From a virus: a DNA stretch of 53,156 nt. Shown in pieces: positions 15,286 through 42,899 of this stretch. Numbering within the stretch: the stretch's first letter is position 1; every line of letters starts with the position of its first letter. The position numbers and the translations under genes are program-made. The DNA lies in IMG/VR virus record IMGVR_UViG_3300009156_000038, one strand, 5' to 3'. The notes under the pieces are model-generated. The model made no database searches. It saw nothing but the letters and a program-made list of their open reading frames with translations, and was not told the origin of the DNA.

Positions 15286-17162
15286 CAGCGTCCCCCTCGC
15301 GGCCCGTGAGCCATGGACCTGGCGTTGCTCTGGTTGTTGCTGCTGATCCGGTAGTCGATGTGCTCGTACAGCTTGTCACCGGCGATATAGACGTTGACGA
15401 CGGACGGCTGGTTGAGCAGGTCCAGCATCCCAGCATCGGCGAGGATGCCGCGGTTGCGGGCGTCGCTGTTGGCCGGGTCCAGGATCGGTTCGCCCTGGTG
15501 GACCATGGCGACCTGGTTGTAGGGGACCACGCCGCCACCGGAGTAGCCGGGCAGGTTCGTGTGGGCCAGGGAGGTGCCGGTCCGGGTGACGCCTTCCTCG
15601 TTGATGACCCCCAGTGCTTTCAGTAGTGCGGTGGCCAGGGACACGGCCCGGGACAACTGGGTCACGATGACTTTGATTGTGCTCAGTGCGATGCTGAATG
15701 CCTCCGCGAACGCCAGGGCCAGGACCACTGCCTGCTGCAGGGCGGCCCGTCCGTCGGGACTCTTCAGCCACGCGGTGAACTTGTTGATCGCTTCGGTGAT
15801 CTTCTCCAGGAACCGGCGCCCGCCGTCCTCGGTCTGTGCGAACAGTTGTCCGAACAAGCCGATCAGGGCCTTGATCAGGTTCCAGATATCGGTGGCGGCG
15901 GCGATCGCGTCGTCCAGGAACTTCTGGAACCGGCCATCCGCTACTGTCGTCTCGATCCAGGTCGCGAAGTCGTCGATGAACCCCGCCAATTTGCCGATGA
16001 GCAGTTCCAGGGTCGGTAGCGCCGCAGTGGTCGCTGTCGCCAGCGCCTGCATCAGATGGATCAGCGGGAACGACAGGGTCTCGATCATCCTGGCCACCGT
16101 TGGGAACAGTTCCTGCACGAACCGCTGGAACGCGGGATCCTGCAGCAGGGACAAGGCGTTGGCGACGAAGACACCCATCGCCAGGGACGCCTTCTCCAAC
16201 CCGGCCCGCAGGATCGGCGCGATCGACTTGATCGCAGGGGCCAGGGCCATGAAGATCGGGCCGAAGAAGGTGCGCTGCACGGTGTCGCGGATGTCTTTGA
16301 GGATCGGGGCCACGGTGCGCAGGTTCATGACCAGTTCACGCATCGTGGGGGACAGCTTCTTCAGCCCGTCGGCCAGTTTCTTCGGGTCCTGTTCGAACAC
16401 CAGTTTCAAAGCGTCACCGAGGTCGTGCAACGCCAAGACCAGGGGCAGCACGATGGCCAGGATCACGCTCAGGGCGGCGGGGACGGCCGTTGCGAATCCC
16501 AGCAGAGCAGCGAACGGGGCCGCGACGACCACGAGCACGGCGGCCAGGGCGGTCAGGACCGATACCAGGGCCACCGCGGCGACCGTGGCCGCGATGATTC
16601 CCGCCGCCGCGGTGGGGGCACTGGCGGCCAGGGCGGCCAGGGCTCCGCCCACGTTGATGGTGGCGGCCACGACGGAGGAGGTGACCTTGCTGAAGTCGGT
16701 GGTGGCACCCACCAGGAACTTGATCCCTTCGAACGCGAGTTCGAGGGATGCCTTGGTGAGGGTGCCGAAGGCTTTGGCCACGTCGAAGACCAGCCCGAAG
16801 ACCTTGACCAGGCTCTTGCTGAGGGAGATGAGGCGTTCACCGAGGTTGCCGATGACCCGGAACAGGATGAAGTTTCCGGTGGCCATGCGCCGGAAAGCCT
16901 TCTCGAACGCGTCCCCGCCTTCGCTGCCGGTACGCCGGGCCCAGCCCACGAACCGCTCACGCCAGGTCAGCAGGGAACGGTCGGTCTCCTTGCTCAGGCC
17001 CGCACTGACGCCCTTACCCAGGGACGCCCCGATCTTCACGCCCTCGGCACTGACGTTGACGTCGAGCTTCTTGAGGATCGAGGTGATCTCTTTCTTGAGC
17101 TCCTTGGCGAATGGACGCGTATCCGCATGAACCTCCACATACGCTTGCCCCAAGGTCGCCAC
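15285..17162 (-). CDS. Tape measure protein (625 aa)
   Basis: Largest tail-region ORF. Ala/Leu-rich helical and hydrophobic central segments. Lies downstream of the chaperone pair. Confidence 0.8.
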   Translation of the reverse strand: MATLGQAYVEVHADTRPFAKELKKEITSILKKLDVNVSAEGVKIGASLGKGVSAGLSKETDRSLLTWRERFVGWARRTGSEGGDAFEKAFRRMATGNFILFRVIGNLGERLISLSKSLVKVFGLVFDVAKAFGTLTKASLELAFEGIKFLVGATTDFSKVTSSVVAATINVGGALAALAASAPTAAAGIIAATVAAVALVSVLTALAAVLVVVAAPFAALLGFATAVPAALSVILAIVLPLVLALHDLGDALKLVFEQDPKKLADGLKKLSPTMRELVMNLRTVAPILKDIRDTVQRTFFGPIFMALAPAIKSIAPILRAGLEKASLAMGVFVANALSLLQDPAFQRFVQELFPTVARMIETLSFPLIHLMQALATATTAALPTLELLIGKLAGFIDDFATWIETTVADGRFQKFLDDAIAAATDIWNLIKALIGLFGQLFAQTEDGGRRFLEKITEAINKFTAWLKSPDGRAALQQAVVLALAFAEAFSIALSTIKVIVTQLSRAVSLATALLKALGVINEEGVTRTGTSLAHTNLPGYSGGGVVPYNQVAMVHQGEPILDPANSDARNRGILADAGMLDLLNQPSVVNVYIAGDKLYEHIDYRISSNNQSNARSMAHGPRGGR

Positions 17163-25866: not shown

Positions 25867-27600
25867 TTACACGACTGCGCAGGTGACCTCACGCTGGGCG
25901 CCGGTGTTACCGGACGGGCAGATCGGAACGGTGTAAACCCGGCTCAGCGGGCACATCCGCATCATCTTCCAACCGGTCTCTGTGAACAGCTGGGTCAGCT
26001 GGTTGGTGGCCAGCTTCACGCTGTCATATACCGCCGAAAGGGTGATAACGTCGGAAACCGCCCGAACCCACGTTCCCGCCGGGTAGACGAGGAACTTGAC
26101 ACCGGTCGGCAGCGCCGAGATCGCGGTGGCCGCACCCGGCCCGCCCTCCACTGGCGCACCCACGAGGTCCGTCGGGGCGAAGGCGTCCTGCCAGTCCATG
26201 ACCCACTGGGCGCGGGCACCGCGCAGCGTGAACCAGGACACGATCTGCGAATCGGTCAGCGCCATGTTGTCCATGTAGTCGCCGCCGTTGCGCCGGGAGA
26301 AGTCCGCGCGGAACTGGGCCAGCAGCCACCACGGGAGGATGACCTCCAGGGTCGCCGCCCGGCTCATCCGCAGCCGGTACTTGATGTCCACGATCGCCAG
26401 CTCGATGGCCGCCATCACCTGGGAGGCGACGGAGCCGTCGGATGCGAACGCCGGGGAGGCCGTGAGGTCCACTGCGGTGGAGTCCGCGACCATGGCCGCG
26501 ATCTGCAGCGAGTTGATCTGGTGCGCGGAGGCGACCATGGCGGCGCGCATCCACAGGGCCACGAACTCCGGGTACCCGCGGTTCTGCAGGATGTTGCCGG
26601 TGATGCACAGGCCCGTGACGCCGAGACGGTCGTCGATAAACGTGGGGCACGGGATCTCGATGCAGGTCTTCGTGGTACCCGCGATGACCTGGGCCTCGGT
26701 GAGGTTGAAGAACCCGGTGCCGCCGCCGAAGACGCCGGTGAAGTCGACACCCTGGTTGTGGCGGATGCCACCACGGCGGGCCTGGACCTCGGGGACGTCC
26801 AGGAGGCCGTCGATGACGCCCTGGAAGCAGGTGTCGTACAGCGTCTCGGACGGGGCGCACCAGCCCGCGGCGGCCACGAGACCGTCACGCAGCGGCTCGG
26901 TGACGGCCAGCTCCTGGCGCCGCTTCTCCACCTGGGCGATGAGACCGCCGGAACCGAACCGGCCGAACTCGTCGATCACCTTCGCCAGGACGGCGTCGTC
27001 CTCCTCCCGGTCGTAGACCGAGAACTCCTGCGGGTAGTCGCGGGTCAGGTAGGCGACCTGGTAGCTGATCGGCTCGCCGGAACCACCGGCACCGAGGGCC
27101 GCCAGGGATGCGAAGCTGTTGGTCTTGTTGACGAAAGCCTTGGCCAGGTCCCGCAGGTCCTTGAGCTCCGAGTCGGCCTGGAAGCCTTCGACGTTCGCCG
27201 CGGCGAACATGCGCCCGTAGACCGTCTTCTCGCCGGTGACGATCTCACCTTCGAGGACCGGGACATGCGGGGCGAGTTCGGCGATCGTGGGAGCCGAGAA
27301 CTCTTCCGGCTTCTCGACGACCGGCTCGATGGTCTCGATCGTCTCGACAGGGGTGGCCAGGACCGCGTGGCTGGCGAGCCGGTCGTTGGTGACGCCACGG
27401 CTGCGGATCTCGGCGGCAGCCGCATCCACGAAGCCCTTCAGGGCGTCCAGGTCGTCGGCCATCTGGTCGGTGCCCAGGCTCGAATCGGCCTTGAGGGAGG
27501 CTACGAGTGTGTTGTATTCGGTGGTCGCCTGGCTCGACATGGCGGTAAGCGCGGCGACCGTGAACAGCGACAGATCGCTGTCAGGGGTCTTGAAGATCAC
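25867..27600 (-). CDS. Major capsid protein with an N-terminal scaffold-like domain (~577 aa); start uncertain
   Basis: ORF 25867..27621. Coiled N-terminal third followed by a capsid-like core (GWCAPSETLYD...). GTG 27600 has GGAG 6 nt upstream. ATG 27540 and ATG 27621 are alternatives. Confidence 0.7.
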   Translation of the reverse strand: MIFKTPDSDLSLFTVAALTAMSSQATTEYNTLVASLKADSSLGTDQMADDLDALKGFVDAAAAEIRSRGVTNDRLASHAVLATPVETIETIEPVVEKPEEFSAPTIAELAPHVPVLEGEIVTGEKTVYGRMFAAANVEGFQADSELKDLRDLAKAFVNKTNSFASLAALGAGGSGEPISYQVAYLTRDYPQEFSVYDREEDDAVLAKVIDEFGRFGSGGLIAQVEKRRQELAVTEPLRDGLVAAAGWCAPSETLYDTCFQGVIDGLLDVPEVQARRGGIRHNQGVDFTGVFGGGTGFFNLTEAQVIAGTTKTCIEIPCPTFIDDRLGVTGLCITGNILQNRGYPEFVALWMRAAMVASAHQINSLQIAAMVADSTAVDLTASPAFASDGSVASQVMAAIELAIVDIKYRLRMSRAATLEVILPWWLLAQFRADFSRRNGGDYMDNMALTDSQIVSWFTLRGARAQWVMDWQDAFAPTDLVGAPVEGGPGAATAISALPTGVKFLVYPAGTWVRAVSDVITLSAVYDSVKLATNQLTQLFTETGWKMMRMCPLSRVYTVPICPSGNTGAQREVTCAVV

Positions 27601-27761
27601 GGAAAGCTCCAGGGGAAACATCGCTTGGACTGCGCGGCGTCAGCCTGTCCGCTGAAAGATGATCACGGCGGCGCCAGCCGGTCCCCTGATATGCCTAAGT
27701 TACCACAAGAAATATGCTTCGCAAGCTTCTGCCCGTTTCACCCCATACAATCAGACACCCG

Positions 27762-27968
27762 GTGGTGTATGATCCTCCGGTGGACAATTACGACGAACTA
27801 CTTACGCCAGGTGAAGTAGCCAAGCAGTTTCGGGTCGACCCGAAGACGGTGACCCGGTGGGCAGCGGCGGGCCGCATCAGCAGTATCCGTACCCCGGGCG
27901 GCCACCGGCGCTTCCGCAAGTCCGAAGTCACCGCACTCCTGGCAGGCAAAAGCCCCCAGAATCCGTGA
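27762..27968 (+). CDS. BldC-like / excisionase-family MerR-type HTH protein (68 aa)
   Basis: LLTPGEVAKQFRVDPKTVTRWAAAGRISSIRTPGGHRRFRKSEVTALLAG. TACAAT at 27746-27751 lies 10 nt before GTG 27762. It is on the opposite strand to the surrounding late genes. Codon GC3 is lower than in its neighbours. Confidence 0.75.
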   Translation: MVYDPPVDNYDELLTPGEVAKQFRVDPKTVTRWAAAGRISSIRTPGGHRRFRKSEVTALLAGKSPQNP

Positions 27969-27993
27969 TCCCGGGGGCCCGTGCACTGTCGGA

Positions 27994-28227
27994 TCATGGA
28001 GCCGGTCGGTACGTGCCCCCCACATTCCCGTCCCGGTCGGTGTCGTCGGCCCGCGACGCCGGGTTCATGACCCGCTGCCGGGCGGCGTCCAGGCCCACCA
28101 CGTCCTCATGGGTGCCGTTGAAGTAGAACACCCGGTACACGGTGTCGTCGCCGGGCGTCTCACGCCGCCCCAGAGCCGTCATCGGCGCAGGATCGGCGGC
28201 CTTCCCGCCGCACCCCGGTCCACACAT
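27994..28227 (-). CDS. Hypothetical protein (77 aa)
   Basis: ORF track. Strong RBS AGGAGG 8 nt upstream of ATG 28227. Confidence 0.6.
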   Translation of the reverse strand: MCGPGCGGKAADPAPMTALGRRETPGDDTVYRVFYFNGTHEDVVGLDAARQRVMNPASRADDTDRDGNVGGTYRPAP

Positions 28228-28239
28228 ATCCCATTCCTC

Positions 28240-31200
28240 CTAGATCAGGTGGGCGCCCAGGCGTACCTGGCGCGCTCGTAGTTCCTCGTGGGTCGGCAGC
28301 GGCTCATATCCCGACAGCCGGGCGATGCGCTGCTCCCGCCCCGAGTCCTCGCCACTGCAGCCGCAGTCCTGCGACTCCTCGGCCTCCTGGGCGGCCAGCT
28401 CCTCGGGACTGAATGTCACCCCGGCGATCAGGCCCATCTGCATCTCCTCCTCGAACCAGACGATCGGCCCGACAGGTCCCAGCTCCATGTCGACCGGTTC
28501 CCCGGTCGCCGACGCGACAATCGGGTACGCGGGACGATTCACACCCAATGCTGCCACAAGTTCCAGGTGCCCGTCGATCGGGTGCCAGTGACCTGATGCC
28601 GGGGTGCGGCGGATCTTCTGAGCCAGCGCCGGATCGTTGTCGGGGACCTGGACGCCGAAGAACACCGGACCGAACTCGTCCTCATACACCCGGCCCACCG
28701 CGGCCTCGGTACCGGTGTGCTCGTAGTGGGCCCGGACCTGGGCCGCGGTGATCCCCCGCCGGGTGGACCCGTGGTAGGCGTCGATGGTCAGCTTGCCTAC
28801 CTCCACCAGTTCCCCTTCAGCGGTGAGCTGCGTGCACACGTGGAAGTCCCGGTACCCCCGCCGGGACCGCGGGGGCTTCATGCAGATGTCCGGCCTGCCG
28901 ATCTGCAGACCCATGTGACAGGTGTCCCAGTCGGCCAGGTGGCCGTAGACCTCGTTGTATCCGTCGCGGGGCACCACGGTCATCTTCGTCTTGCGGGCCA
29001 GGCGCCGCTGGGCGAAAGCCGCTTTCGGCGGGTGGATCCCGTCGTAGCCGGACGCGACGAGGCCCGCCTGCGAGGTGTAGAGGCCGTCCAGGATCCGCCG
29101 GATCGAAGCCTTGTCCGATGCCGGGATGTCGGCCTGGTTGAGGCGTCCCTTGGCCGCGGTGACCGCGGCCCGGAAGACGGTGAGCTTCCCGTTGACGGGC
29201 ATCGCGATGGGGAACTTGTAGGCCGTCTTGTTCTCCCGGTTGGCCGCGTTGTACCACAGGAAGCCGCGGGCATACTTGGACATGTCGTCCCCGGCCCAGG
29301 CGTCCAGTGCGGCACGGGCGCGCCCCTCGTCCCAGGGTGCATCCGATGTGGGCAGCGAGGACCAGCCCGAGGTCCGCACCGCGAAGGTTTCGGTATCCAT
29401 GATGTCCGCCTTTGTTGCCTTCTGTGCCTTCTCTGCTGCCCGGTCCCAGCTGGCCTGGATGTTCGGATCGCCGAACTCGACGGCCAGCTTGGCGTAGATG
29501 TCCGAGATGACCGACCGCAGCCGGGCCTTGTCCGGGTCGGGGATGTTGGGCAACCCGCCGTGCCCGCCTTCCAGCAGGGCCGCGGCGGCGTAGATCGCGT
29601 GGTAGATCAGGTAGGGCTTGCCGTCGATGATGTCGCCCCACGGCAGCCGGTATCCGGCCCGGTCCAGCGGTGCCCCTTCTGGGTCGATCCAGAGGAACAT
29701 CTTGCGCATCTTGGACTCATCCGGCGAATCGCCACCGATGCCTGCATACAGTTCGATCCGGGACACCGCCTCATCGGCATCGAACTCGGCATCCCGGGGC
29801 GCCACCGGGGCACCCTTCCAACCGGCGGAGTTGACCGAAGCGAACTCACCTTCAGGGATCTCGACAACAAAAGGGATCGCCTGGGACCGGCCCCCGTCCT
29901 CCAGGGCCTGCGATGCCGCGGCCACCAGGGCATCCACCAGGTCGCCTTCAGCCACGGGCAGCCCTTCCGGGATGTACAGCGTCCCGGCATCGTCCTCCAC
30001 AGCCTCATCCACAGCCTCGGGATACTGCAGTTCCAGCCGCAGATCCGCGAACGCGGGGATCGAGACCAGGGTGGCTCCCCGGATCCGGCCCTCAGTGACC
30101 GCCAGCATCGTCTTGCCGCCGAACTCGACCGCGGTGCCAGTGAACGAATCCAGGTCTACGCTGGGACCCGCGACACCGTTCTCGACAAGATGGATCGCCT
30201 TGGTGACTTCGGGGATGACGTCCGGGTTCAGGAAGTAGCCTTCGCCGACGATCGCGGGCTTGCCCTGCCATTCGCCCTCATGGGCGTTGGTGATGGCTGC
30301 GACCGTGACGGCCGACTCGTGTCCCGGCATGCCTTTCTCCTGCCACCGCAGTGGCGCCGGGAACGACTGGTACGTCAGGGTGTCGGGGGGGAAGATGCGC
30401 CGGTCGCCGGTGGGCTTGCCGATGGGCGCGAGGGGGCCGCGCCAGGTGACCGGCGAGTAGGTGCCCATGGAGGCGACCAGGGCACCTAGGTCCTCGGCTC
30501 CCCGCAGCGGAATGTCGTAGTGGTCCCCGCCGAACGCGAGGCGCACCGTGTCAAAGGTTACAGGTCCGAGCCCGTCCACTAGTCCGCGGTGTTCGTCGAG
30601 ATCATCGGTGTACTTCGCGGTCACGTGGGCAGCGAAGGGCATGTGCTGGTCTGGCACCTTGGGCCCGTAGGTGTTGCCTGCCGCGTGCCGGATGGTGCGG
30701 TGCACCCGGTCCACGTCGGCACCGTCGATTCCGTAGACCAGCGCGGTGTCCTTGCCGTTGTCGCCGGGATTGAAGTACGCCAAAGCGAAGGCGTTCGCCC
30801 GTACGGGACCCTGGCTGCCCAGCGCCTTGGCCACCTCGGACGCCATCAGCAGCCGCTCCTGCGTGGACCATTCGACCGCATCGCCCAGGTAGGCCAAGGT
30901 GAGATGCAACTCCTCGACCGGCTCCCCGCCCTCCATGGCCAGACGCTTGGCGTCGTCGGCCGACGGGATCAAGGCGATCATGGCGCCGGTGTGGGTCTCG
31001 GCGGCGAACTCCTCCACGTCACCGTCGTGGGCGTTGCGGTCACCCGGGTACTTGCCGGTGGCCGCCTTGTGCAGGGTGTTGCACTCACCCTTCACCATGC
31101 GCTCGGGGACGTCGTGGCGGCGCAGGAACGCGACACAGCGGTCGAAATCGCCATGGGAGCCCCAGCCGATCTCGGCTGCCGCCTTCCCGTGCAGCAGGGA

Positions 31201-31248
31201 TTCCCGCAGTTGGGGCGGGATCCGGCTGACATCGAATTCCAGGGTCAT
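28240..31248 (-). CDS. Head maturation protease polyprotein with an embedded 2H-phosphoesterase-like domain (1002 aa)
   Basis: ATG 31248 overlaps the MuF stop (ATGA). HLTL and HVTA motifs lie about 93 residues apart (2H fold). They are followed by prohead-protease-like segments (TWRGPLAPIGKPTGDRRIF...; ...YGHLADWDTCH...). Confidence 0.75.
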   Translation of the reverse strand: MTLEFDVSRIPPQLRESLLHGKAAAEIGWGSHGDFDRCVAFLRRHDVPERMVKGECNTLHKAATGKYPGDRNAHDGDVEEFAAETHTGAMIALIPSADDAKRLAMEGGEPVEELHLTLAYLGDAVEWSTQERLLMASEVAKALGSQGPVRANAFALAYFNPGDNGKDTALVYGIDGADVDRVHRTIRHAAGNTYGPKVPDQHMPFAAHVTAKYTDDLDEHRGLVDGLGPVTFDTVRLAFGGDHYDIPLRGAEDLGALVASMGTYSPVTWRGPLAPIGKPTGDRRIFPPDTLTYQSFPAPLRWQEKGMPGHESAVTVAAITNAHEGEWQGKPAIVGEGYFLNPDVIPEVTKAIHLVENGVAGPSVDLDSFTGTAVEFGGKTMLAVTEGRIRGATLVSIPAFADLRLELQYPEAVDEAVEDDAGTLYIPEGLPVAEGDLVDALVAAASQALEDGGRSQAIPFVVEIPEGEFASVNSAGWKGAPVAPRDAEFDADEAVSRIELYAGIGGDSPDESKMRKMFLWIDPEGAPLDRAGYRLPWGDIIDGKPYLIYHAIYAAAALLEGGHGGLPNIPDPDKARLRSVISDIYAKLAVEFGDPNIQASWDRAAEKAQKATKADIMDTETFAVRTSGWSSLPTSDAPWDEGRARAALDAWAGDDMSKYARGFLWYNAANRENKTAYKFPIAMPVNGKLTVFRAAVTAAKGRLNQADIPASDKASIRRILDGLYTSQAGLVASGYDGIHPPKAAFAQRRLARKTKMTVVPRDGYNEVYGHLADWDTCHMGLQIGRPDICMKPPRSRRGYRDFHVCTQLTAEGELVEVGKLTIDAYHGSTRRGITAAQVRAHYEHTGTEAAVGRVYEDEFGPVFFGVQVPDNDPALAQKIRRTPASGHWHPIDGHLELVAALGVNRPAYPIVASATGEPVDMELGPVGPIVWFEEEMQMGLIAGVTFSPEELAAQEAEESQDCGCSGEDSGREQRIARLSGYEPLPTHEELRARQVRLGAHLI

Positions 31249-32045
31249 GCCGCCTCCGTGGTCGTCGCAGCGCATCGGCAATTTATCACCAAATGGGGCG
31301 GGGCGGATTTGTCGCCGGGCATCTGCATCGGGAACCCGCCCACGATGAACGGCTCCCGCAGGGGGCGCCGCTGCTTATCGGCCTGCTTGTGCTCCGCACG
31401 GACCCGGGTGTCGCCAGCCGCCAGCCACTCCTTGAGCAGAGGGTGCCCCAGGATCTGCTCGGTCTGGATCGCGGCTGCCATCCAACCGACGTTCGCAGCA
31501 CCGTTGACCTCGGTGACCGAGATGACCCGGGCCCTGGCGGGCCAGTTCTCGCTGCCGGTGACGGTGAGGACGTTCTCGATCCGGGCGGCGATCTCTTCCA
31601 GGTTCTCCCCCTCGTTGTGGCCGTCGATCACCTCGGCGATGATCTGCTGGTACGTCTCTTCCGGGATGCGTACCAGGTAGTTGGCCACCTGGGCCAGGTG
31701 GCCCACGACGAAGGCGTCGGTCGACGGATAGACCGGCAGGTCGACATCGGGGTGCTCACTGTCGAAACGGTCCCAGCCGTGCGGGGCCGCGTTACCGTCG
31801 AGCCACGCGACCAGCTTCTTCACTTCCCTGTCCCACAGGGGCACCGTCGACCAGAGGGCGGAAACGTCCGGTGCCTGCCGGAACCGGCGCCACGGGGTGA
31901 GGATCTTCGCGGAGACCGCAGCCAGCCACGCAGTGATCGCAGCCAGGACCAGGGCATAGAACGCAGCCTCCAGGGGCGTCAGCGTCTCATCGACCACCGG
32001 TTCCGGTGGCTGGGTCACATCCTCGGGTGGGATCGGCTCGGTCAC
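31245..32045 (-). CDS. MuF-like (SPP1 gp7 family) minor head protein (266 aa)
   Basis: Position after the portal gene. C-terminal DTRVRAEHKQ...PFIVGG...INCRC pattern. GTGA overlap with the portal stop. Confidence 0.75.
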   Translation of the reverse strand: MTEPIPPEDVTQPPEPVVDETLTPLEAAFYALVLAAITAWLAAVSAKILTPWRRFRQAPDVSALWSTVPLWDREVKKLVAWLDGNAAPHGWDRFDSEHPDVDLPVYPSTDAFVVGHLAQVANYLVRIPEETYQQIIAEVIDGHNEGENLEEIAARIENVLTVTGSENWPARARVISVTEVNGAANVGWMAAAIQTEQILGHPLLKEWLAAGDTRVRAEHKQADKQRRPLREPFIVGGFPMQMPGDKSAPPHLVINCRCAATTTEAA

Positions 32046-34345: not shown

Positions 34346-35872
34346 CTACCACCCGAAATTGAACCCGTGCCCGAGCCCGTCGTCCCAGCGGCTCTCACGC
34401 TGCTTATCCACCTCGCTGGGATCGATGATCTTCCCCCGATCCCGCTCGTTGATCATGTGCTGGCGGCAGGCGTGGACCATGGCGTCGAGCCGGTCCGGCG
34501 ATTCCTTGCCGTCCCACGAGGTGAACGTGGTCAGTTGATCCTTCAACAAGGTCAGCGGGCCGACGGTGTCGATCGTCTGGACCGGCTCCACCAGGTGCAG
34601 CTTGCCCTGCTGGGACCGCATGGCCACCGGTTCGGCCCGAGTCTTCTTGCCCAGTTTCGCGTCCACGCCGACGATCGGTGCGGTCGTGTTCGCCGGAGCC
34701 TCGCCGAGCTGGATCAGTTCGGACCAGGCGTCCCGGAAGACGTCCATCATCCACTTCTTGCCCAGGTTGTCCTCGCAGACCAGCAGGTCCGCGTTCCATT
34801 TGATCATGACGCGCCAGGCGTGCATCGCAGCCTCTTTGCCCGCGGCCTTGATCGTCTCGTCGGCCAGGACGTACATGTGTGTCGAACGGCACCGGGCCAC
34901 CACGACCACACCCATCTCGTCATGGGCATCTCGGGACCGGCCAGCCCGGCGCGAGGTCGACTCCTCCTCGCCGACATCGTCAGCCAGGGACGGGTCGATC
35001 CCGACGTAGATCGCCGAGACGATCTCGCCTTCCGGGATCTCGGTGACTTTGTACTTCTCCAGGTCCCCGAGCTTGAACAGGGCCCCCTGCATCAGTTCCA
35101 GGACGTCTCCGTACAGCTCCTGGCGCCCGAGGTCGGTGCCTTCGTATTTGGCGAGCAGGATCTTGAGCATCTGCGGGGACAGGTTCTCCGCGTTGTCGAA
35201 CGTCGACCCCCGGATCACGTGGACCGTGCCGTCGGTGGACTCCATCCAGCCCTTGAGCAGCCTGGACGGCTTCGGGGTCGTGGTGGCGAAGACCCGCGGG
35301 TGGTCGGTTTCCAGGTCTGCCCGTAATGCCGGTAGAATCCCTTCGAACCAACTTTGGTATGCTCTGGGCCATTTTACTATTTCGTCCAGCCAGGCGCCTG
35401 CCAGGTTGTAGCCGCGGCCCACGTCCTCGTCGTCGGCGCCCTCGCAGTGGATCTTGCAACCGTTGGGGAAGATCACCATCGGCTTCGGGGACTGCTTGTA
35501 CCGGTGGGCGATGCCCCGACGGTCGAGGACCCGCAGGATCCCTGCCGGTCCCTCCATGCAGATGGCCCGGGCATCCGACAGAGTCTCGGCCACCACGAGG
35601 TATTCGGTCGGGGCACCATGGCGATCCTTCGGGTAGAGCTGGGTACGTTCCACCAGCCACTCGGCACCGGCCCGGCTCTTGCCCCATCCCCGGCCGCACA
35701 GGGCCAGGGCCAGCAGCCATGCGCCCGGCGGGGGGACCTGTTCCGGGCGGGCCAGCCACCACCATTCGCCGCGGGCGATCTCTTTCAGGACCCAGGGTTC
35801 CTGCTCGTCGATCCATGCCTCCCGCAGGTGAGGCGGGAGTAATGCGAACCTTTGGGCCAGACTTAGTGCCAT
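34346..35872 (-). CDS. terL: Terminase large subunit (508 aa)
   Basis: Walker-A-like CGRGWGKSRAG. Typical TerL length. First gene of the late operon. ATG 35872 is chosen because the upstream ORF extension overlaps tRNA-Pro and the divergent promoter. Confidence 0.85.
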   Translation of the reverse strand: MALSLAQRFALLPPHLREAWIDEQEPWVLKEIARGEWWWLARPEQVPPPGAWLLALALCGRGWGKSRAGAEWLVERTQLYPKDRHGAPTEYLVVAETLSDARAICMEGPAGILRVLDRRGIAHRYKQSPKPMVIFPNGCKIHCEGADDEDVGRGYNLAGAWLDEIVKWPRAYQSWFEGILPALRADLETDHPRVFATTTPKPSRLLKGWMESTDGTVHVIRGSTFDNAENLSPQMLKILLAKYEGTDLGRQELYGDVLELMQGALFKLGDLEKYKVTEIPEGEIVSAIYVGIDPSLADDVGEEESTSRRAGRSRDAHDEMGVVVVARCRSTHMYVLADETIKAAGKEAAMHAWRVMIKWNADLLVCEDNLGKKWMMDVFRDAWSELIQLGEAPANTTAPIVGVDAKLGKKTRAEPVAMRSQQGKLHLVEPVQTIDTVGPLTLLKDQLTTFTSWDGKESPDRLDAMVHACRQHMINERDRGKIIDPSEVDKQRESRWDDGLGHGFNFGW

Positions 35873-35935
35873 GTGTCCGAATATTACTTCATGACCTGTT
35901 ATGTACGCCAGCCCCAAAAAATCTTGAATACGCAT

Positions 35936-35964
35936 TTGACACGGGGGGAGGGCGTAGGTAGTGT
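35936..35964 (+). promoter_or_regulatory. Sigma70-type promoter driving the tRNA / accessory block
   Basis: TTGACA at 35936-35941, a 17-nt spacer cggggggagggcgtagg, and TAGTGT at 35959-35964. The first 16 nt are identical to the TIR promoter. Confidence 0.65.
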
Positions 35965-36057
35965 TCTGGGTGTGCAAGACGGAGCGAGGGCAACGAAAGC
36001 GGACGACCCGGGCTACGGAAGCATGGGACTGCCGGTCACAGTGATCGACGGTCTCCA

Positions 36058-36130
36058 CGGATACAGGGCCCAAGGCGGGCCGCCTGGTTTGGGACCAGGA
36101 CACTGGTAGGTTCGATTCCTACGTATCCGA
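36058..36130 (+). tRNA. tRNA-Pro (anticodon TGG)
   Basis: Hand-folded cloverleaf: acceptor cggatac/gtatccg, D stem ggcc/ggcc, anticodon stem cctgg/ccagg with loop tttggga, T arm gtagg-ttcgatt-cctac. Confidence 0.8.
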
Positions 36131-36284
36131 CGGCTGGGGCGCCCTGGTTAATTCCCCCCAGTTGTGTTTCCAGGCTCCCGGGGCCTGACGGGATCATGGG
36201 CTCCCGGACCCGGGGGCCTACAAACGAGGCGCAACTGGAGAGGGCAAGCTATACCGGTTCAGGACCGGGACATTTGTGCCACAA

Positions 36285-36356
36285 GTGGTCGTAGTGTTAA
36301 TGGCAACACACCTGTCTTCCAAACAGGAGTTCCGGGTTCGAACCCCGGTGACCGCA
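36285..36356 (+). tRNA. tRNA-Gly (anticodon TCC)
   Basis: Acceptor gtggtcg/tgaccgc (2 G:U pairs), D stem gtgt/acac, anticodon stem cctgt/acagg with loop cttccaa, T arm ccggg-ttcgaac-cccgg. Confidence 0.8.
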
Positions 36357-36466
36357 CGATGCCGCCGGGGGCGGTGGCAAGGGGAACCGAAGGGGCGTGT
36401 GGCCCTTCCGGGAGGCCCGGTGATTGGCGGGTTAGACCGGGCGACATCAAGCTGAGAGAGAAGGAC

Positions 36467-37198
36467 ATGGGCAAGCTTCATCAGGTCATCGCCGTCGAGA
36501 GCACTGTCAAGGCGAACGCCGAGACCGCGTTCACCAAGGCGTACCACGAGATCCAGAAGAACGACCAGTTCCTGGGGCTCACCAAGACGTATCAGCCCGC
36601 CAACGAGGACGGCTTCCAGCTCCCGCCGGAGTCGAAGAGGGTCCTGTCGAACGCGAACACGCTGATCACGGACGTCCAGGCGGCACTGGAGAAGCTGTTC
36701 GATCACGTCGCCACCAAGGACACCGCGAACCAGGGCGCCAAGGCCGACATCGAGTTCCTGGGGGTGACCGTCAAGGACGTCCCGGTGGCCACGCTGCTGT
36801 GGGTGGAGAAGAAGCTGGTCGACATCCGGACCTTCGTGTCGAAGATCCCGACCCTGGATCTGGCGGAGGAGTGGACCTGGGACCAGTCGGCTCAGATCTT
36901 CCGGGCGGCACCGTACGCCACGGCGCGTCAGCGCAAGGACACCGAGTACATCACGGTCGTGCAGCCCACCGACAAGCATCCGGCCCAGGTGGTGGCGAAG
37001 CCGGTCGACGTGTTCGAGGGCACCTGGACGACGACGAAGCTGTCGGGCGCCATGTCGCCTGCCCGCAAGCGTGACATCCTGGGACGGGTGGACGGGCTGC
37101 TGATGGCGGTGAAGCGCGCCCGGGAGACCGCGAACTCATTCGAGGTCACCAACGTCTCGATCGGCAACACCCTGCTGAACCTCGTGTTCGGCTCCTAG
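36467..37198 (+). CDS. Conserved-looking hypothetical protein (243 aa)
   Basis: Frame of ORF 36164..37198. ATG 36467 with RBS GAGAAGGA. The earlier part of the ORF overlaps tRNA-Gly. Confidence 0.75.
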   Translation: MGKLHQVIAVESTVKANAETAFTKAYHEIQKNDQFLGLTKTYQPANEDGFQLPPESKRVLSNANTLITDVQAALEKLFDHVATKDTANQGAKADIEFLGVTVKDVPVATLLWVEKKLVDIRTFVSKIPTLDLAEEWTWDQSAQIFRAAPYATARQRKDTEYITVVQPTDKHPAQVVAKPVDVFEGTWTTTKLSGAMSPARKRDILGRVDGLLMAVKRARETANSFEVTNVSIGNTLLNLVFGS

Positions 37199-37201
37199 AC
37201 T

Positions 37202-37216
37202 CCCGGGTAACCCGGG
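37202..37216 (+). terminator. Short hairpin after the 243-aa gene
   Basis: cccggg-taa-cccggg, 4 nt after the stop. No T-run follows. Confidence 0.35.
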
Positions 37217-37350
37217 TGAGCACAAGATGATGTTGAAGCTTAGCCTCAGTGGTCCAGGGATGGACGCGTTCAAACTGAAGCTATCGCTCCAAGATCATTA
37301 ACAGTCCCAGATCGCCACATCAAATAGCAGCAGGCAAGGGAACCGCAGTC

Positions 37351-37378
37351 GGGGGTTCGAATCCCCCCGGGGCCGCCA
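37351..37378 (+). ncRNA. Orphan tRNA 3' module (T arm, 3' acceptor strand, discriminator, encoded CCA)
   Basis: ggggg-ttcgaat-ccccc then cggggcc-g-cca. I found no complementary 5' acceptor strand upstream. The complement ggccctg lies 3 nt downstream. Confidence 0.4.
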
Positions 37379-37460
37379 CATGGCCCTGTGGAGAAGTGGC
37401 ATCTCAGCATCCGTAAGAACTGACCTGAGGCTTTAAACGCCGGTGGCGTGAGTGGGAAAC

Positions 37461-37531
37461 CAAGTGATTGGGCAATGGCAGCCCAACAGCCTATCAAGCT
37501 GTAGATCTCGGTTCGAATCCGAGTCGCTTAA
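37461..37531 (+). tRNA. tRNA with anticodon ATC (Asp codon GAU) and a C1:A72 mismatch
   Basis: Acceptor caagtga/tcgctta, D stem gggc/gccc, anticodon stem acagc/gctgt with loop ctatcaa, T arm ctcgg-ttcgaat-ccgag. Confidence 0.5.
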
Positions 37532-37576
37532 ACACAATTTCAGGGGTCCGGCAGGCTAGTCCGGGCCCCTGGCCAA

Positions 37577-37642
37577 GCCCCGATAGCTCAATTGGCAGAG
37601 CGGTCGACGGACGAGATGTGGGTTCGAATCCCACACGGGGCA
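37577..37642 (+). ncRNA. tRNA-like element with a truncated anticodon arm (66 nt)
   Basis: Acceptor gccccga/acggggc (6/7 pairs), D arm gctc-aattggca-gagc, T arm gtggg-ttcgaat-cccac. Only 16 nt (ggtcgacggacgagat) lie between the D and T arms. Confidence 0.5.
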
Positions 37643-37726
37643 CAACTCCGTTCCAGCTATGGGCTGGCGGAATAGTACAGGGATACGCGGCCCTGTGCGG
37701 GCATGGGAAGTCATGAGCCCCATGTA

Positions 37727-37808
37727 GTGACGTGGTGTAAGGCAGCACGGGGACCCAACTCCCAAGTGGAGCGGAACCAGGTCCAGGTTTCGAAATCCTG
37801 GAGTCACG
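37727..37808 (+). ncRNA. Class-II-like tRNA-like element with a 6-nt anticodon loop (82 nt)
   Basis: Acceptor gtgacgt/gagtcac (1 mismatch), D stem gtgt/gcac, stem ggga/tccc with loop cccaac, long variable arm, T loop ttcgaaa closed by a U:U pair. Confidence 0.4.
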
Positions 37809-37811
37809 CGA

Positions 37812-37885
37812 GACCCTGTAGCCCAATGGGTAGAGGCACTGGATTCAAGTTCCGGTCAGTCCAGGTTCGAATCCTGGCAGGGTCA
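37812..37885 (+). tRNA. tRNA with anticodon CAA (Leu by anticodon) but class-I architecture
   Basis: Perfect acceptor gaccctg/cagggtc, anticodon stem ctgga/tccgg with loop ttcaagt, 5-nt variable loop, T arm ccagg-ttcgaat-cctgg, A73. Confidence 0.65.
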
Positions 37886-37904
37886 CGACCTGAAAGGAGA
37901 AATC

Positions 37905-38096
37905 ATGGAGATCGGTAAGTGGACCAAGGCGAGCAAGAGCGGCACCGCCGGTGCCTGCGTCGAAGTGAAGGAACTGGAGGCTGGGCTCATCGGGGTGCGC
38001 GACTCCAAGGACCCGGGCGGCCCCATCCTGTTTTTCACTCGGGACGAGTGGAACGCGTTCCTCGACGGCGCCACCAAGGGCGAATTCGACCTGTGA
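37905..38096 (+). CDS. DUF397 (BldB-family-like) small protein (63 aa)
   Basis: WTKASKSGTAGACVEV...VRDSKDPGGPILFFTRDEWNAFLDGATKGEFD is a typical DUF397 pattern. RBS AAGGAG. Confidence 0.85.
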   Translation: MEIGKWTKASKSGTAGACVEVKELEAGLIGVRDSKDPGGPILFFTRDEWNAFLDGATKGEFDL

Positions 38097-38185
38097 CGGG
38101 TTTCTGGGACATATTCTGGCCCGTGTTCTGGGCAGTCCTGTCGGCCCTGGCGGTACGTTCGATCATCAGGGCTGTCTTTGAGTAG
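38093..38185 (+). CDS. Possible 30-aa hydrophobic peptide
   Basis: GTG 38093 overlaps the DUF397 stop (GTGA). Sequence VTGFWDIFWPVFWAVLSALAVRSIIRAVFE. Confidence 0.35.
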   Translation: MTGFWDIFWPVFWAVLSALAVRSIIRAVFE

Positions 38186-38189
38186 CCCT

Positions 38190-38298
38190 GGGCTACTAGC
38201 TCAACGGATAGAGCACGGTCTCAAAGCCCGGAGGCGAGCGTCGACTAGCGCCGGGTGGGCGTAGGCCGAGGTTCCTGGTTCGAGTCCAGGGTAGTCCA
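38190..38298 (+). ncRNA. tRNA-like element with a 43-nt anticodon-loop region (109 nt)
   Basis: Acceptor gggctac/gtagtcc, D arm gctc-aacggata-gagc, stem cggtc/ggccg enclosing 43 nt (internal cccgg/ccggg hairpin), 5-nt variable loop, T arm cctgg-ttcgagt-ccagg. Confidence 0.5.
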
Positions 38299-38333
38299 CG
38301 CAACATGAGGAAAGTCCAACGAGAAGAGGACAA

Positions 38334-38723
38334 ATGGCAATGCTAGTCAACAGCTCCCGCCTCAGCGAGGTCCGGAGCGAAATGACCAGGGAGCGCCAGG
38401 AACAGGAGAAGCGGGAGATACGGGTGATGCTCGACGAATACGGCACCGACGACTACGCGGACGGCACGGTGCTGATGTGCACCAAGGAGTCCTACGGCGG
38501 CATCGACGAGCCGATCACTTTCGTCCTCGTCAAGAACACCAGGGGCATCAAGAACGGCTGGCGGCGCATCGGTTCCGTTCACGAGATGACGTGGGACAAC
38601 CTGGTGGACTGGCTGCTCATCGAGGGCACCCCGACCCGCAAGGCCGACCTGATCGAGCTGGCACCCAAAGCGACGGTGGCCGACGTCAAGGCCCCCGAGA
38701 TCCCGCTGCCCAAGGCGGACTAG
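38334..38723 (+). CDS. Hypothetical protein (129 aa)
   Basis: ORF track. RBS GAAGAGGA upstream. Confidence 0.7.
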   Translation: MAMLVNSSRLSEVRSEMTRERQEQEKREIRVMLDEYGTDDYADGTVLMCTKESYGGIDEPITFVLVKNTRGIKNGWRRIGSVHEMTWDNLVDWLLIEGTPTRKADLIELAPKATVADVKAPEIPLPKAD

Positions 38724-38769
38724 TTCGCTACTGACGATCCCACTGGGGGCCTGAGTCATAATCAAATAG

Positions 38770-38894
38770 GGGGATGTACCCGAAGCGGCCAAACGGGTGA
38801 CCGGCGGAATCATCTAGTGCACTACTTAACACCGCCGGAACAGGGTATCCCGGTGCACCGGGGGCCCACGTGGTTTCCAATCCCACCATCCCCA
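38770..38894 (+). ncRNA. Oversized tRNA-like element (125 nt)
   Basis: Perfect acceptor ggggatg/catcccc, Tyr-type D arm cccg-aagcggccaaa-cggg, 7-bp stem ccggcgg/ccgccgg enclosing 24 nt with the palindrome tagtgcacta, extra hairpin cccgg-tgca-ccggg, T loop ttccaat. Confidence 0.45.
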
Positions 38895-39339
38895 CGCAAA
38901 AGCAGCAGAAGGTAACCGTGCCACGGGTTACTCAAGGAGCTGTGCCAGCAGCCCGGAGGGCACCGGAGAACCTGGCGGAGGGTGTAGCCGTATCTCTACC
39001 AAGAGCGTGCGGTCACCGGGGGTCGCGGTCCCGGCACCCACGAACGGCGTCAACATGGTCGGCCGGGAGAATGAAGGCTCCCGGGATCGACGTGAAAGGA
39101 TGGCAGCCCACCGCTGGGTGCTGAGACACGCGGTGGTGCCGCAGGCTGGTCGAGCAGCTTGCGTGTCGTCGGAGAAGAACCCTGGGGACCATTACGCCCC
39201 GGGGGCCACACCTGCGCCGTGCAAACTACAGGAGCATGAAGAAGGGACCAGGAACATGATCCTCGATGAGGAACAGCGACTCAAGGAACTGGGTAATCCC
39301 GAGGCGTGGGCCGAGGTTCCCCGGCCCACGGAGTAAGAC

Positions 39340-39416
39340 GTAACGCTGGCGGCCATGGTACCCGGGGAGATCCCGGGGCGCCCTCGAATAGGTCACGAAA
39401 CAGCCGCCAGCGTTAC
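39340..39416 (+). ncRNA. 77-nt stem-enclosed structured element
   Basis: Perfect 14-bp closing stem gtaacgctggcggc/gccgccagcgttac, internal hairpin cccggg-gagat-cccggg. Ends 4 nt before tRNA-Asn. Confidence 0.4.
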
Positions 39417-39420
39417 CCGT

Positions 39421-39491
39421 TCCGAGATCGTCCAACGGCAGGACACCGAGTTGTTACCTCGGGAATCGGGGTTCGAATCCCTGTCTCGGAG
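39421..39491 (+). tRNA. tRNA-Asn (anticodon GTT)
   Basis: Acceptor tccgaga/tctcgga, D stem gtcc/ggac, anticodon stem ccgag/ctcgg with loop ttgttac, T arm cgggg-ttcgaat-ccctg. Confidence 0.85.
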
Positions 39492-39495
39492 CCCA

Positions 39496-39591
39496 GGGCC
39501 CGTAGCTTAAGCGGAACCGTGGGAAACGTACGCCCGGCCGGTTCCCGGGAAAGAGCGCCGGAGGGTGCGGGTTCGAATCCCGCCGGGTCCA
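39496..39591 (+). ncRNA. tRNA-like element (96 nt) with expanded D and anticodon regions
   Basis: Acceptor gggcccg/cgggtcc, T arm gcggg-ttcgaat-cccgc, stem ccggc/gccgg enclosing 18 nt, 29 nt where the D arm should be. Confidence 0.45.
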
Positions 39592-39599
39592 CGCAACAA

Positions 39600-39682
39600 G
39601 GTGATGTCGTCCAGCGGCCTAGGACCCAGGGGGAGCTTCGGGCTCACACTCCGAGACGCCGGTTCGAATCCGGCCGTCACCA
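39600..39682 (+). ncRNA. tRNA-like element (83 nt) with an expanded anticodon region
   Basis: Acceptor ggtgatg/cgtcacc, Glu/Gln-type D arm gtcc-agcggccta-ggac, T arm gccgg-ttcgaat-ccggc. 32 nt lie between the D and T arms (ggag/ctcc stem, 13-nt loop). Confidence 0.5.
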
Positions 39683-39699
39683 CGTAACAGGAGGATGCG

Positions 39700-39855
39700 A
39701 TGAAGTGTGTCAACGGGCACGACTGGGAGGACTGCAGCTGCCCCAAGACCGAGGAGTTCCGCGCAGCTCAGGACCGCTGGACACTGCAGGTTACCTTGGT
39801 GGCGGTGACGGTGGCCGTGTGTGCCGGGTTGCTGGTGGCAGCGATGCTGCATTGA
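39700..39855 (+). CDS. Small membrane-anchored Cys-containing protein (51 aa)
   Basis: ATG 39700 with RBS AGGAGGA 5 nt upstream. MKCVNGHDWEDCSCPK... followed by the TM helix VTLVAVTVAVCAGLLVAAML. Not in the ORF track (<60 aa). Confidence 0.55.
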   Translation: MKCVNGHDWEDCSCPKTEEFRAAQDRWTLQVTLVAVTVAVCAGLLVAAMLH

Positions 39856-39871
39856 GGGAGAAGGAGGAGTA

Positions 39872-40285
39872 GTGAAGGAGTTCCTGAAAGTCGGCGGCAC
39901 CATCCTGGGTGCCGTGCTCGGCGTGGCCCTGCTGGGCTGGGGTATCTACGCCGTCAAGGTGGCTATGTCGCCGGTGAAGGGTGCTGGGGACACGGTGATC
40001 CAGAACAACAGCGTCCGCAACCGCACCCAGGCGCAGGAGCGGATGCAGGAGATGTACGCGGCGGTGGAGCGTAATGTCCGCAACGTCCAGGTGGCTACGG
40101 CCGCCGCGAAGCAGCACCCCAACGACCGGATCCTGGGCACCAACGCGGACGGGGCGCTGCAGATCTGCTTCGCTGCCGTGGCGGACTACAACGCAGAGAC
40201 CGGGAAGATCCTCACCCGCGACTGGGTGTCGGACAAACTTCCCCTGACCATCGACGATTCGATCTGTGAGGCGGCAGCGAAGTGA
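39872..40285 (+). CDS. Membrane protein (137 aa)
   Basis: Frame of ORF 39821..40285. GTG 39872 follows GAAGGAGGAG. N-terminal TM GGTILGAVLGVALLGWGIYAV. Confidence 0.65.
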   Translation: MKEFLKVGGTILGAVLGVALLGWGIYAVKVAMSPVKGAGDTVIQNNSVRNRTQAQERMQEMYAAVERNVRNVQVATAAAKQHPNDRILGTNADGALQICFAAVADYNAETGKILTRDWVSDKLPLTIDDSICEAAAK

Positions 40286-42519: not shown

Positions 42520-42748
42520 TCCCGAGCTAGCCGCCCTGATGCCGGAGCCGTTCCTGACGGTGCGTCCGGGGGACCAGGTGACGCTGTTCGTGCCGCTACT
42601 GGATCGTACTTACGCCATGGACCCGGCAATGCACCTTCAGAAAGCCCTGAACGCCTGGACACCTGGCGTGACGTGGGCGATCGTCGAGGGGACCGGGGTC
42701 ACCGGGGTCATTCACGTGGCCCGGGAGGATCGAACTCCCCGTTCTTGA
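42494..42748 (+). CDS. Hypothetical protein (84 aa)
   Basis: ORF track. Its 3' end converges on and overlaps the - strand DUF397 gene. Confidence 0.55.
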   Translation: MPSDHSAFDPELAALMPEPFLTVRPGDQVTLFVPLLDRTYAMDPAMHLQKALNAWTPGVTWAIVEGTGVTGVIHVAREDRTPRS

Positions 42749-42899
42749 CCCCCGCGATGAAGGCGTCCCACTCCGGCCGGGCCAGGATCACTGATCCTTG
42801 TCCCCGTTCGCTGCTGCGGACCCAGACCGCTTCACGCTGGAAGCTGACTTCCACGCAGGCGGTGGCTTCGCAGAAGCTGCTGCGGACCCATTCGATCAT
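42708..42899 (-). CDS. DUF397 (BldB-family-like) small protein (63 aa), second copy
   Basis: MIEWVRSSFCEATACVEV...VRSSERGQGSVILARPEWDAFIAGVKNGEFD. ATG 42899 overlaps the dcd stop (ATGA). Confidence 0.8.
   Translation of the reverse strand: MIEWVRSSFCEATACVEVSFQREAVWVRSSERGQGSVILARPEWDAFIAGVKNGEFDPPGPRE

Follow-up and report, generated by a model that had tools for sequence, protein, structure and literature searches.

A probable near-orthologue of BldC in a capsid-proximal cargo slot of an uncultured phage lineage

We analysed IMG/VR virus record IMGVR_UViG_3300009156_000038, here called the window (the whole stretch of 53,156 bp, 65.3% G+C), which comes from an uncultured soil actinobacterial phage that is apparently lytic. 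We found that a short plus-strand open reading frame (ORF), lying antisense between the major capsid gene and the gene for a 77-amino-acid (aa) head-operon protein, is very probably a real gene encoding a DNA-binding protein of the BldC family. In Streptomyces, BldC acts as a major brake on development and antibiotic production, and the family is conserved across actinomycetes; to our knowledge, little has been learnt of what it does in genera other than Streptomyces and Actinoplanes. The BldC family and its fold, MerR-like and Xis-like phage proteins, and phage copies of WhiB and Lsr2 were already known. What is new is a near-orthologous BldC in a phage lineage, at a conserved position in a capsid-proximal cargo slot. 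A phage-borne BldC would be a natural experiment in which the dosage or timing of BldC is set by a parasite. Throughout, L- and P-numbers label database loci and proteins that are related to the window or to its BldC-like protein.

BldC-family membership of the encoded protein

The protein matched the NCBIfam model HTH_BldC (NF033787) with 102.3 bits (E 9e-30; curated cut-off 77). The same model gave 107.9 bits to BldC of Streptomyces coelicolor and 102.2, 102.5, 88.1 and 81.5 bits to the orthologues at L002, L003, L007 and L008, respectively. We also observed matches to the excise domain TIGR01764 (43.2 bits, cut-off 28.8) and to Pfam HTH_17 (50 bits). The excise match does not discriminate, however, because bona fide BldC from S. 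coelicolor also matches that model (33.5 bits). The top sequence matches in the PDB were the BldC structures 6AMA and 6AMK (E 3e-21). The initial annotation had read this protein as BldC-like and named generic excisionases as the competing assignment. The searches side with BldC, and phage proteins of the MerR-like and Xis-like kind reached just 19-56 bits on the BldC model.

Structure prediction gave the same answer. An AlphaFold (AF2) model, with a predicted local distance difference test score of 82.9, contained helices at residues 16-23, 27-35 and 53-60 and a β-wing. It superposed on 6AMA and 6AMK with target-normalised template modelling (TM) scores of 0.89-0.92, root mean square deviations of 0.7-1.0 Å and 70-73% identity. 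The next fold matches were RacA (TM ~0.62) and the Xis protein of mycobacteriophage Pukovnik (E 0.025). The chain of 67-68 aa forms a single MerR-like winged helix-turn-helix (wHTH) without a coiled-coil dimerisation or effector domain. Its Pfam MerR_1 match spans only profile positions 2-46 of 69 and the protein ends right after the wHTH, so that it lacks the classical MerR traits of a C-terminal coiled coil and an effector domain. Classical MerR regulators bind a palindrome within a 19-bp promoter spacer, and no palindromic operator was seen in a repeat search of the gap. In these respects the protein resembles BldC of S. coelicolor and Streptomyces venezuelae (6AMA, 6AMK; PMC5859096, PMC6428758), which is likewise a lone winged HTH of about 68 aa, with its contact and interface residues kept. 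Unlike Streptomyces BldC, it is phage-encoded, lies antisense within a head-gene operon and has a lower G+C content at third codon positions (GC3).

The residues by which BldC reads DNA are largely preserved. In the BldC structures, K26 and R30 contact bases, H46, R47 and R48 form the wing contacts, and T27, T29, W31, K33, A15 and D24 contact the backbone (PMC5859096). Nine of these 11 residues are unchanged in the phage protein, the exceptions being A15G and K33A. The head-to-tail interface sets F21, V23 and W31 against L11, I40, T42, L43 and G44, with an additional R22-E16 contact (PMC5859096), and every one of these residues is unchanged except L43P. All three substitutions also occur in cellular BldC proteins, and proline at position 43 is the norm in BldC from outside Streptomyces. 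The segment VDPKTVTRWAAAGRISSIRTPGGHRRFR is identical in many chromosomal BldC proteins. Over a 48-residue core, the phage protein is 90-92% identical to chromosomal BldC from Micromonospora, Dactylosporangium, Actinomadura, a Frankiales metagenome-assembled genome and Fodinicola, and so to BldC of Micromonosporaceae, Streptosporangiales and Frankiales. Its identity to S. coelicolor BldC is lower, at 75%. The close phage group (window, L002, L003 and L088) has features of its own, namely K or Q before F21, loss of E51 and an N-terminal YDPxVD motif, while P0002 (L172) retains E51. The relatives carry excisionase-family annotations from the Joint Genome Institute (JGI).

Antisense orthologues occupy the same position in the window (L001), L002 (a 54.9-kb contig), L003, L088, L172, L004/L006 (one and the same contig), L007 and L008, the last three loci named being the more divergent. 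The identical protein (P0001) is present on other JGI contigs. The ORF is intact in at least seven related metagenomic phage genomes, with capsid identity down to 59%. Against L002, L003 and L088, the ratio of nonsynonymous to synonymous substitution (dN/dS) was 0.05-0.20, although 52-74% of synonymous sites differed (pS 0.52-0.74) and were thus near saturation, which indicates strong purifying selection on the protein.

The start of the coding sequence was assigned by comparison. The longest form of the ORF opens at ATG 27714 (84 aa) and shares the TGA ending at 27968. We rejected this form: L003 carries an in-frame TAG in the extension, which is thus non-coding, and the extension overlaps promoter-like DNA. 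GTG 27765 is the start position common to four of five close relatives. The initial annotation had begun the ORF at GTG 27762, placed a TACAAT box 10 nt before it and quoted the resulting peptide, and each of these elements is present. The box, a candidate -10-like hexamer at 27746-27751 on the plus strand, is partly conserved as TAGAAT (L002), TGCAAA (L003), TACAAA (L088) and TGTAAT (L172). L003 and L088 have an AAGGA Shine-Dalgarno sequence instead, and L007 and L008 have TAAGGT 7 nt ahead of an ATG. The earlier description of the gene as nearly leaderless is therefore plausible for this genome, where expression could start from the predicted TACAAT promoter, but does not extend to the relatives in general. 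The same applies to its codon usage, which had been noted as less GC3-biased than that of the neighbours. GC3 is indeed 0.70 in the bldC-like ORF as against 0.85 in the 77-aa gene and 0.90 in the capsid gene, but it is 0.84 in the L088 orthologue and 0.87 in that of L008.

In a collection of 50,697 phage records, a single record exceeded 60% identity, MT836007.1 (L089), an unverified faecal scaffold labelled 'Bacteriophage sp.'. Its gene is 61% identical, scores 104.5 bits on HTH_BldC and adjoins purM and an esterase gene. It is the one record of the collection with a true BldC-family gene, but with purM as a neighbour it is probably a bacterial fragment misfiled as phage, and we did not count it as a phage BldC. 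P0025 (L086), with a core 94% identical, lies among small overlapping ORFs without PHROG matches. We also observed that in P0003, P0004, P0006 and P0008 two complete wHTH units are fused in tandem (BldC-BldC) within one chain of 114-128 aa; P0004 is located on a 124-kb contig at NCBI. Such a fusion amounts to a covalent head-to-tail dimer and would fit the DNA-binding mode of BldC.

Organization of the capsid-proximal slot

On its 3' side, the bldC-like gene converges on the 77-aa gene, which has no Pfam or PHROG match but has homologues at the same position in L002, L003, L007, L008, L004 and L009. At their junction lies a GC-rich hairpin (Table 1). RNAfold gave it -35 kcal/mol on the minus strand (z -2.8), and it is found in five of five close genomes with four pairs preserved through compensatory change. 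A simple terminator scan did not call the hairpin because its T-run is shorter than five T. Directly after the stop of the convergent 77-aa gene, it therefore looks like a bidirectional terminator.

On the other side, the bldC-like gene is divergent from the capsid gene, and about 160 bp separate the ORF from the start of the latter. The capsid protein is 81-85% identical to those of L002 and L003 and 66% identical to that of L004. In L002 the frame is closed by a TAA further upstream and the gene starts at the homologous GTG; VIFK is common to all relatives, so that GTG 27600 is most likely the capsid start. The gap of 372 bp (27622-27993) given in the initial annotation is thus correct between the longest ORFs, but measured from this start it is about 393 bp. 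Within it we identified a candidate capsid promoter with an extended -10 element, the sole match in the 53-kb window to TTGNNA-N12-14-TGNTANNNT. Its hexamers are conserved in the window, L002, L003, L088 and L172, with a spacer that varies in sequence at constant length. Analogous elements are present in L007/L008 (TAGACA-N17/18-TAT[T/C]GT) and L025/L026 (TAGACG-N15-TGC-TACC[G/C]T). We infer a dedicated promoter for the capsid gene, predicted from these patterns but not called by an E. coli-type promoter scan, with two repeats within its leader.

These repeats are two 22-nt direct copies, GCGGCGTCAGCCTGTCCGCTGA and GCGGCGCCAGCCGGTCCCCTGA, which are spaced 34 bp apart, begin with GCGGC and occur nowhere else in the window. 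Copy 2 and the extended -10 region fall in a near-invariant non-coding block of 50 bp, 48 positions of which are identical to each of L002, L003 and L088 although synonymous sites differ by 36-74%; under a neutral divergence of at least 36%, such conservation has a binomial P of ~8e-8. An exact search of IMG/VR for the invariant 25-mer returned no match. All members of the capsid family that we examined, whether or not they carry antisense cargo, have a two-copy repeat with a spacing of 27-34 bp shortly before the capsid gene. The mini-palindrome GGC-N4-5-GCC is found in most copies but is not evident in the L025 copy. Because L009, which has no antisense gene, and L025/L026 carry the repeats, these are features of the capsid leader and not BldC-specific. 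We had considered the paired repeats as an operator for the BldC-like protein, a possibility weakened by their presence upstream of the capsid gene in relatives without the bldC-like gene. They belong to the capsid-gene leader of this phage family and may act in DNA, as an operator for a late regulator, or in mRNA, as a leader element. RNAfold gave no sign of structured RNA in the gap (z +1.9 on the minus strand, +0.08 on the plus strand).

The content of the slot varies among relatives. In L009 (capsid 52% identical) it is empty, with the capsid gene coming directly after the 77-aa homologue (gap 2897-2977). L025, L026 and L032 (capsid 37-38% identical) have a different antisense gene there, for a small predicted membrane protein. 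L008 has a C5-cytosine-methyltransferase-like gene behind the bldC-like gene, and the two form one reverse cassette. By sequence comparison, a predicted terminator and a predicted promoter frame a recombination-tolerant slot that can take several accessory cargoes, the bldC-like gene among them. Upstream of the slot is the head-assembly block, which runs from the terminase to the 77-aa gene; on the other side is the block from capsid to tail.

With these flanks, we predict that the bldC-like gene is probably a separate, insulated transcription unit. Because the terminator-like hairpin and the capsid promoter-like element flank the slot, late RNA polymerase need not transcribe the body of the antisense gene. 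The head-on collision and antisense interference with capsid expression raised in the initial annotation are weakened by both elements, and collision is probably limited. Morons are independent transcription units inserted between adjacent late phage genes. The bldC-like gene is moron-like in being inserted between genes that are adjacent in L009, in its deviating base composition and in the different cargo found in different relatives. A promoter and a terminator of its own, as morons have, are predicted: the hairpin is conserved and the -10-like box partly conserved, and the consensus scan was negative. Unlike morons, it is reverse-oriented and has been retained over long divergence (down to 59% capsid identity), and no sign of lysogeny or prophage expression was seen. 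Beyond the bldC-like gene itself, the locus reveals a conserved cargo slot and a capsid-gene control region, with a promoter-like element and paired repeats, in an uncultured phage family.

Table 1. Coordinates of the bldC-like gene, its surroundings and other features, in the window unless another locus is named
Feature	Position	Strand	Remarks
bldC-like coding sequence	27762 or 27765 (GTG) to 27968; stop TGA 27966-27968	+	68 or 67 aa
77-aa head-operon gene	27994-28227	-	convergent with bldC-like gene; conserved MCG(C/P)G...YFNG motif
GC-rich hairpin	27948-27980		overlaps last bldC-like codons; minus-strand UUUU at 27951-27948
Major capsid gene	longest ORF 25867-27621; probable 25867-27600	-	phrog_777 major head protein, E 2e-125
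Probable capsid start	GTG 27600-27598	-	Shine-Dalgarno GGAG 27610-27607, conserved
Candidate capsid promoter	-35 TTGCGA 27724-27719; extended -10 TGG-TAACTT 27705-27697	-	N13 between the elements
Near-invariant non-coding block	27658-27707		covers repeat copy 2 and extended -10 region
Direct repeat copy 1	27634-27655		capsid-gene leader; GCGGCGTCAGCCTGTCCGCTGA
Direct repeat copy 2	27668-27689		capsid-gene leader; GCGGCGCCAGCCGGTCCCCTGA
Paired repeats, window	27634-27689
Paired repeats, L002	9861-9906
Paired repeats, L003	6732-6778
Paired repeats, L007	2931-2975
Paired repeats, L008	2921-2968
Paired repeats, L004	3915-3959
Paired repeats, L009	2916-2958		spacing 32 bp
Paired repeats, L025/L026	~2870-2930
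Small membrane protein gene, L025	2548-2715	-	predicted
Small membrane protein gene, L026	2348-2716	-	predicted
Reverse cargo, L008	1901-2638	-	methyltransferase Pfam match weak (16.5 bits), motifs I and IV visible
1013-aa protein gene	28240-31281	-	head-maturation-protease domain
Large terminase gene	34346-36103	-	structural block
MuF-like gene and portal-region gene		-	structural block
Tape-measure protein gene	15285-17162	-	structural block; tail genes also there
HU-family nucleoid protein gene	50326-50661	-	Pfam Bac_DNA_binding, 95.5 bits
tRNA genes (eight)	36058-39683; 42715-42791	+; -	Pro, Gly, Asp, Leu x2, Asn, Thr, Arg
Terminal inverted repeats	1-123; 53034-53156		perfect, 123 bp

Candidate functions of the phage protein

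We slightly favour a mimic of host BldC over a regulator of the phage's own genes. The bldC-like gene would be expressed as its own reverse transcription unit, sharing its 3' hairpin or terminator with the convergent 77-aa gene and read from a weak or leaderless promoter placed back-to-back with the capsid promoter-like element. Because the recognition helix, the wing and the head-to-tail interface are essentially those of chromosomal BldC, BldC-like binding is expected. BldC binds cooperatively and head to tail on AT-rich direct repeats of the form AATTNNNN(C) (PMC5859096), one BldC site being the whiI-opt 22-mer 5'-CAATTCGGACAATTCGGACA-3', and the phage protein would bind AT-rich direct repeats as cooperative head-to-tail multimers in the same way. 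It would have the specificity of host BldC and could co-assemble with it. Its main role would then be host-directed, adding to or perturbing BldC occupancy at the host BldC regulon during infection, and a secondary effect on the adjacent phage promoters would be possible. Four observations point in this direction: the identity of recognition helix and wing to those of chromosomal BldC proteins, the accessory-cargo character of the slot, the lack of a visible BldC-type site or regulon on the phage, and the occurrence of the adjacent repeats in relatives without the gene. The tandem BldC motif (WWWWN4C) is not enriched on the phage genome (33 hits against 24±6 expected) and is absent from the gap, a scan that is uninformative on host sites. 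AATT, the core of BldC sites, occurs 28 times in the window as against 44.7±6 expected from shuffles, and forms no cluster. This depletion could reflect site avoidance, or just the usual depletion of palindromic tetramers. That modulation or mimicry of host BldC is the main function remains a tentative proposal from sequence, and the explanation as a whole, host-directed mechanism included, falls a little short of an even chance in our estimate.

The role of BldC in Streptomyces is to sustain vegetative growth and to delay development. Apparently lytic soil actinophages may have long kept a near-exact copy of this host master regulator, as an independently transcribed cargo gene, to occupy, or co-assemble on, the host regulon, locking infected hyphae in the vegetative state and blocking sporulation or dormancy; we regard this as conceivable but doubtful. 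If true, viral mimicry would for the first time involve a developmental regulator of the Bld class, and the protein would be a direct handle on BldC outside Streptomyces. The initial annotation had linked the gene to Streptomyces, a link that the comparisons do not support: tblastn in the collection of 50,697 phage records found no related Streptomyces phage, and the protein is nearer to BldC from outside that genus. The nearest cellular BldC proteins come from sporulating, mostly filamentous non-Streptomyces actinomycetes. Actinophages encode host regulators of the WhiB and Lsr2 types, and MerR-type domains occur in more than 10% of actinophage genomes (PMC8612146). The gene described here resembles the phage WhiB and Lsr2 copies as a host transcription factor taken up by an actinophage and would extend this borrowing to the Bld class. 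The actinophage transcription-factor survey lists MerR-type domains but never mentions BldC (PMC8612146), and our literature search found no description of a phage-encoded BldC orthologue.

Several observations weigh against a host-directed role. The distant orthologues have drifted (L007 and L008 are 69% identical, L004 58%), and the L004 orthologue scores 66.8 bits on HTH_BldC, under the cut-off of 77. Such drift is in keeping with a role inside the phage, in which the protein and its phage sites co-evolve. The BldC fold is so constrained that identity could reflect structural necessity and not common targets. By analogy with merR/merT, the divergence of the gene from the capsid promoter region resembles the classic layout of a regulator and its target, and mycobacteriophage D29 Gp36 offers a precedent, as a protein that represses phage genes through direct repeats (PMC12266134). 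An E. coli-type promoter scan detected no promoter, and the predicted promoters are weak by consensus.

The strongest competitor is that the protein is the phage's own transcription regulator, which would bind the divergent control region or other phage sites and tune the capsid and late genes and its own synthesis. The gene is divergent from the capsid start and within 160 bp of it, the gap between them holds the near-invariant 50-bp block and the two-copy direct repeat, and direct repeats are what BldC-type proteins bind (PMC5859096). For D29 Gp36, repression of phage genes goes through GC-rich GCGGC direct repeats (PMC12266134), and the window repeats start with GCGGC; the divergence of the distant orthologues from the cellular consensus would also agree with this role. 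Repeats of this kind, however, also lie upstream of the capsid gene where the slot is empty (L009) or carries the membrane-protein cargo (L025/L026). Their spacing of 27-34 bp is not the 9-10 bp of BldC sites, they lack the AATTN4C pattern, the gap has no tandem BldC motif, and as the repeat is absent elsewhere in the genome no phage regulon is visible. Gp36 itself is an imperfect parallel. Both are small winged-helix proteins, MerR-like or Xis-like, from actinophages that are lytic (in the window, apparently so), and Gp36 binds direct repeats and regulates transcription (PMC12266134), as the window protein may do. Unlike the window protein, it belongs to the excise family (43.6 bits on excise, 19.1 bits on HTH_BldC), the two proteins are 36% identical over 36 aa, and the gp36 gene adjoins an integrase remnant in the early arm, not the head operon. 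On balance we consider an own-regulator role somewhat unlikely. If only phage promoters are regulated, the protein is an ordinary small phage regulator of unusual pedigree.

The remaining explanations carry far less weight. Gordonia phage Petra gp40 and Arthrobacter phage Zaheer gp44, the closest homologues in cultured phages (47-50% identity, same fold class), are HTH_17 proteins in the Cro/Xis position that sit at the immunity switch, adjoining the repressor and the integrase. This neighbourhood, the TIGR01764 match of 43 bits, a match to phrog_66 (E 4e-9) and the JGI annotation of the relatives would suit an excisionase or recombination directionality factor that partners an integrase. Petra gp40 and Zaheer gp44, however, score 51.8 and 55.8 bits on HTH_BldC, both under the cut-off of 77 and at the upper end of the range seen for Xis-type proteins, and BldC itself matches the excise model. 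The gene lies in a head operon, and Pfam and PHROG scans of 44 window ORFs (every non-structural ORF of at least 250 aa and about half of the structural ORFs) detected no integrase or recombinase domain. Because no integrase was found, the genome is apparently complete, bounded by its 123-bp inverted repeats, and a capsid-protein search of 185,579 species genomes (GTDB) returned no prophage relatives and identified no host, an excisionase role is very unlikely. The same low standing applies to a neutral passenger or decaying gene fragment, for which the lower GC3, the variable slot and the weak promoter signals might speak: it is contradicted by the dN/dS values at near-saturated synonymous sites, by the intact ORF in at least seven genomes and by the functional residues that these keep. 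A DNA-architectural helper is improbable too, if less so. The protein could recognise the packaging site as a small-terminase-like HTH, serve in replication or remodel the nucleoid together with the HU-like protein that the phage encodes (Table 1); it has a weak match to the phrog_57 small terminase (E 2e-4), no small-terminase gene is evident beside the large terminase, and the literature discusses BldC as bridging the MerR regulators and architectural proteins like Xis (PMC6428758). Yet a 68-aa protein without a small-terminase-type oligomerisation domain, oriented against the packaging genes and in a variable slot that is empty in L009, is a poor candidate for packaging, and its near-orthology to cellular BldC would be left unexplained.

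The genome around the slot

Perfect inverted repeats of 123 bp form both ends of the window, which therefore has the appearance of a complete linear genome. The terminal repeats suggest protein-primed or hairpin-telomere replication of such a genome, or else an assembly artefact. Each repeat contains an inward-facing promoter-like element, TTGACA...TGGTAGAGAAT, followed by AGGAGG and then ATG, and the first gene at either end begins with the common N-terminus MSGVA. We identified no DNA polymerase in the window, and no relative of the end gene was found on viral contigs. A megablast search for a known phage relative returned only a 92-nt match in the capsid gene of Microbacterium phage Jayden.

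The Pfam and PHROG scans of the window also identified a primase-helicase of the PrimPol/D5 type, a dCTP deaminase, a DSPc phosphatase and a DUF7873 protein. The HU-family nucleoid protein is a second host-like DNA-architectural protein of this phage, besides the BldC-like one. ARAGORN called eight tRNA genes, some of which overlap ORF ends, and a doubtful transfer-messenger RNA at 39500-40165 that overlaps two of the tRNAs. Strong promoter-like sites that begin with TTGACAC and then a G-rich or C-rich run were found at 73-97, 35936-35964 and 3591-3619. Sites of this type are thus located in both terminal repeats, upstream of the plus-strand block of tRNA genes and DUF7873, and at 3591, and they may be early promoters.

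In the structural block, the 1013-aa protein has two regions, one RNA-ligase/2H-phosphoesterase-like (residues 87-260) and one of the head-maturation-protease type (residues ~750-925). In L002, two separate genes take its place. Their products have 906 and 433 aa, and the larger of them weakly matches an ADP-ribosyltransferase toxin.

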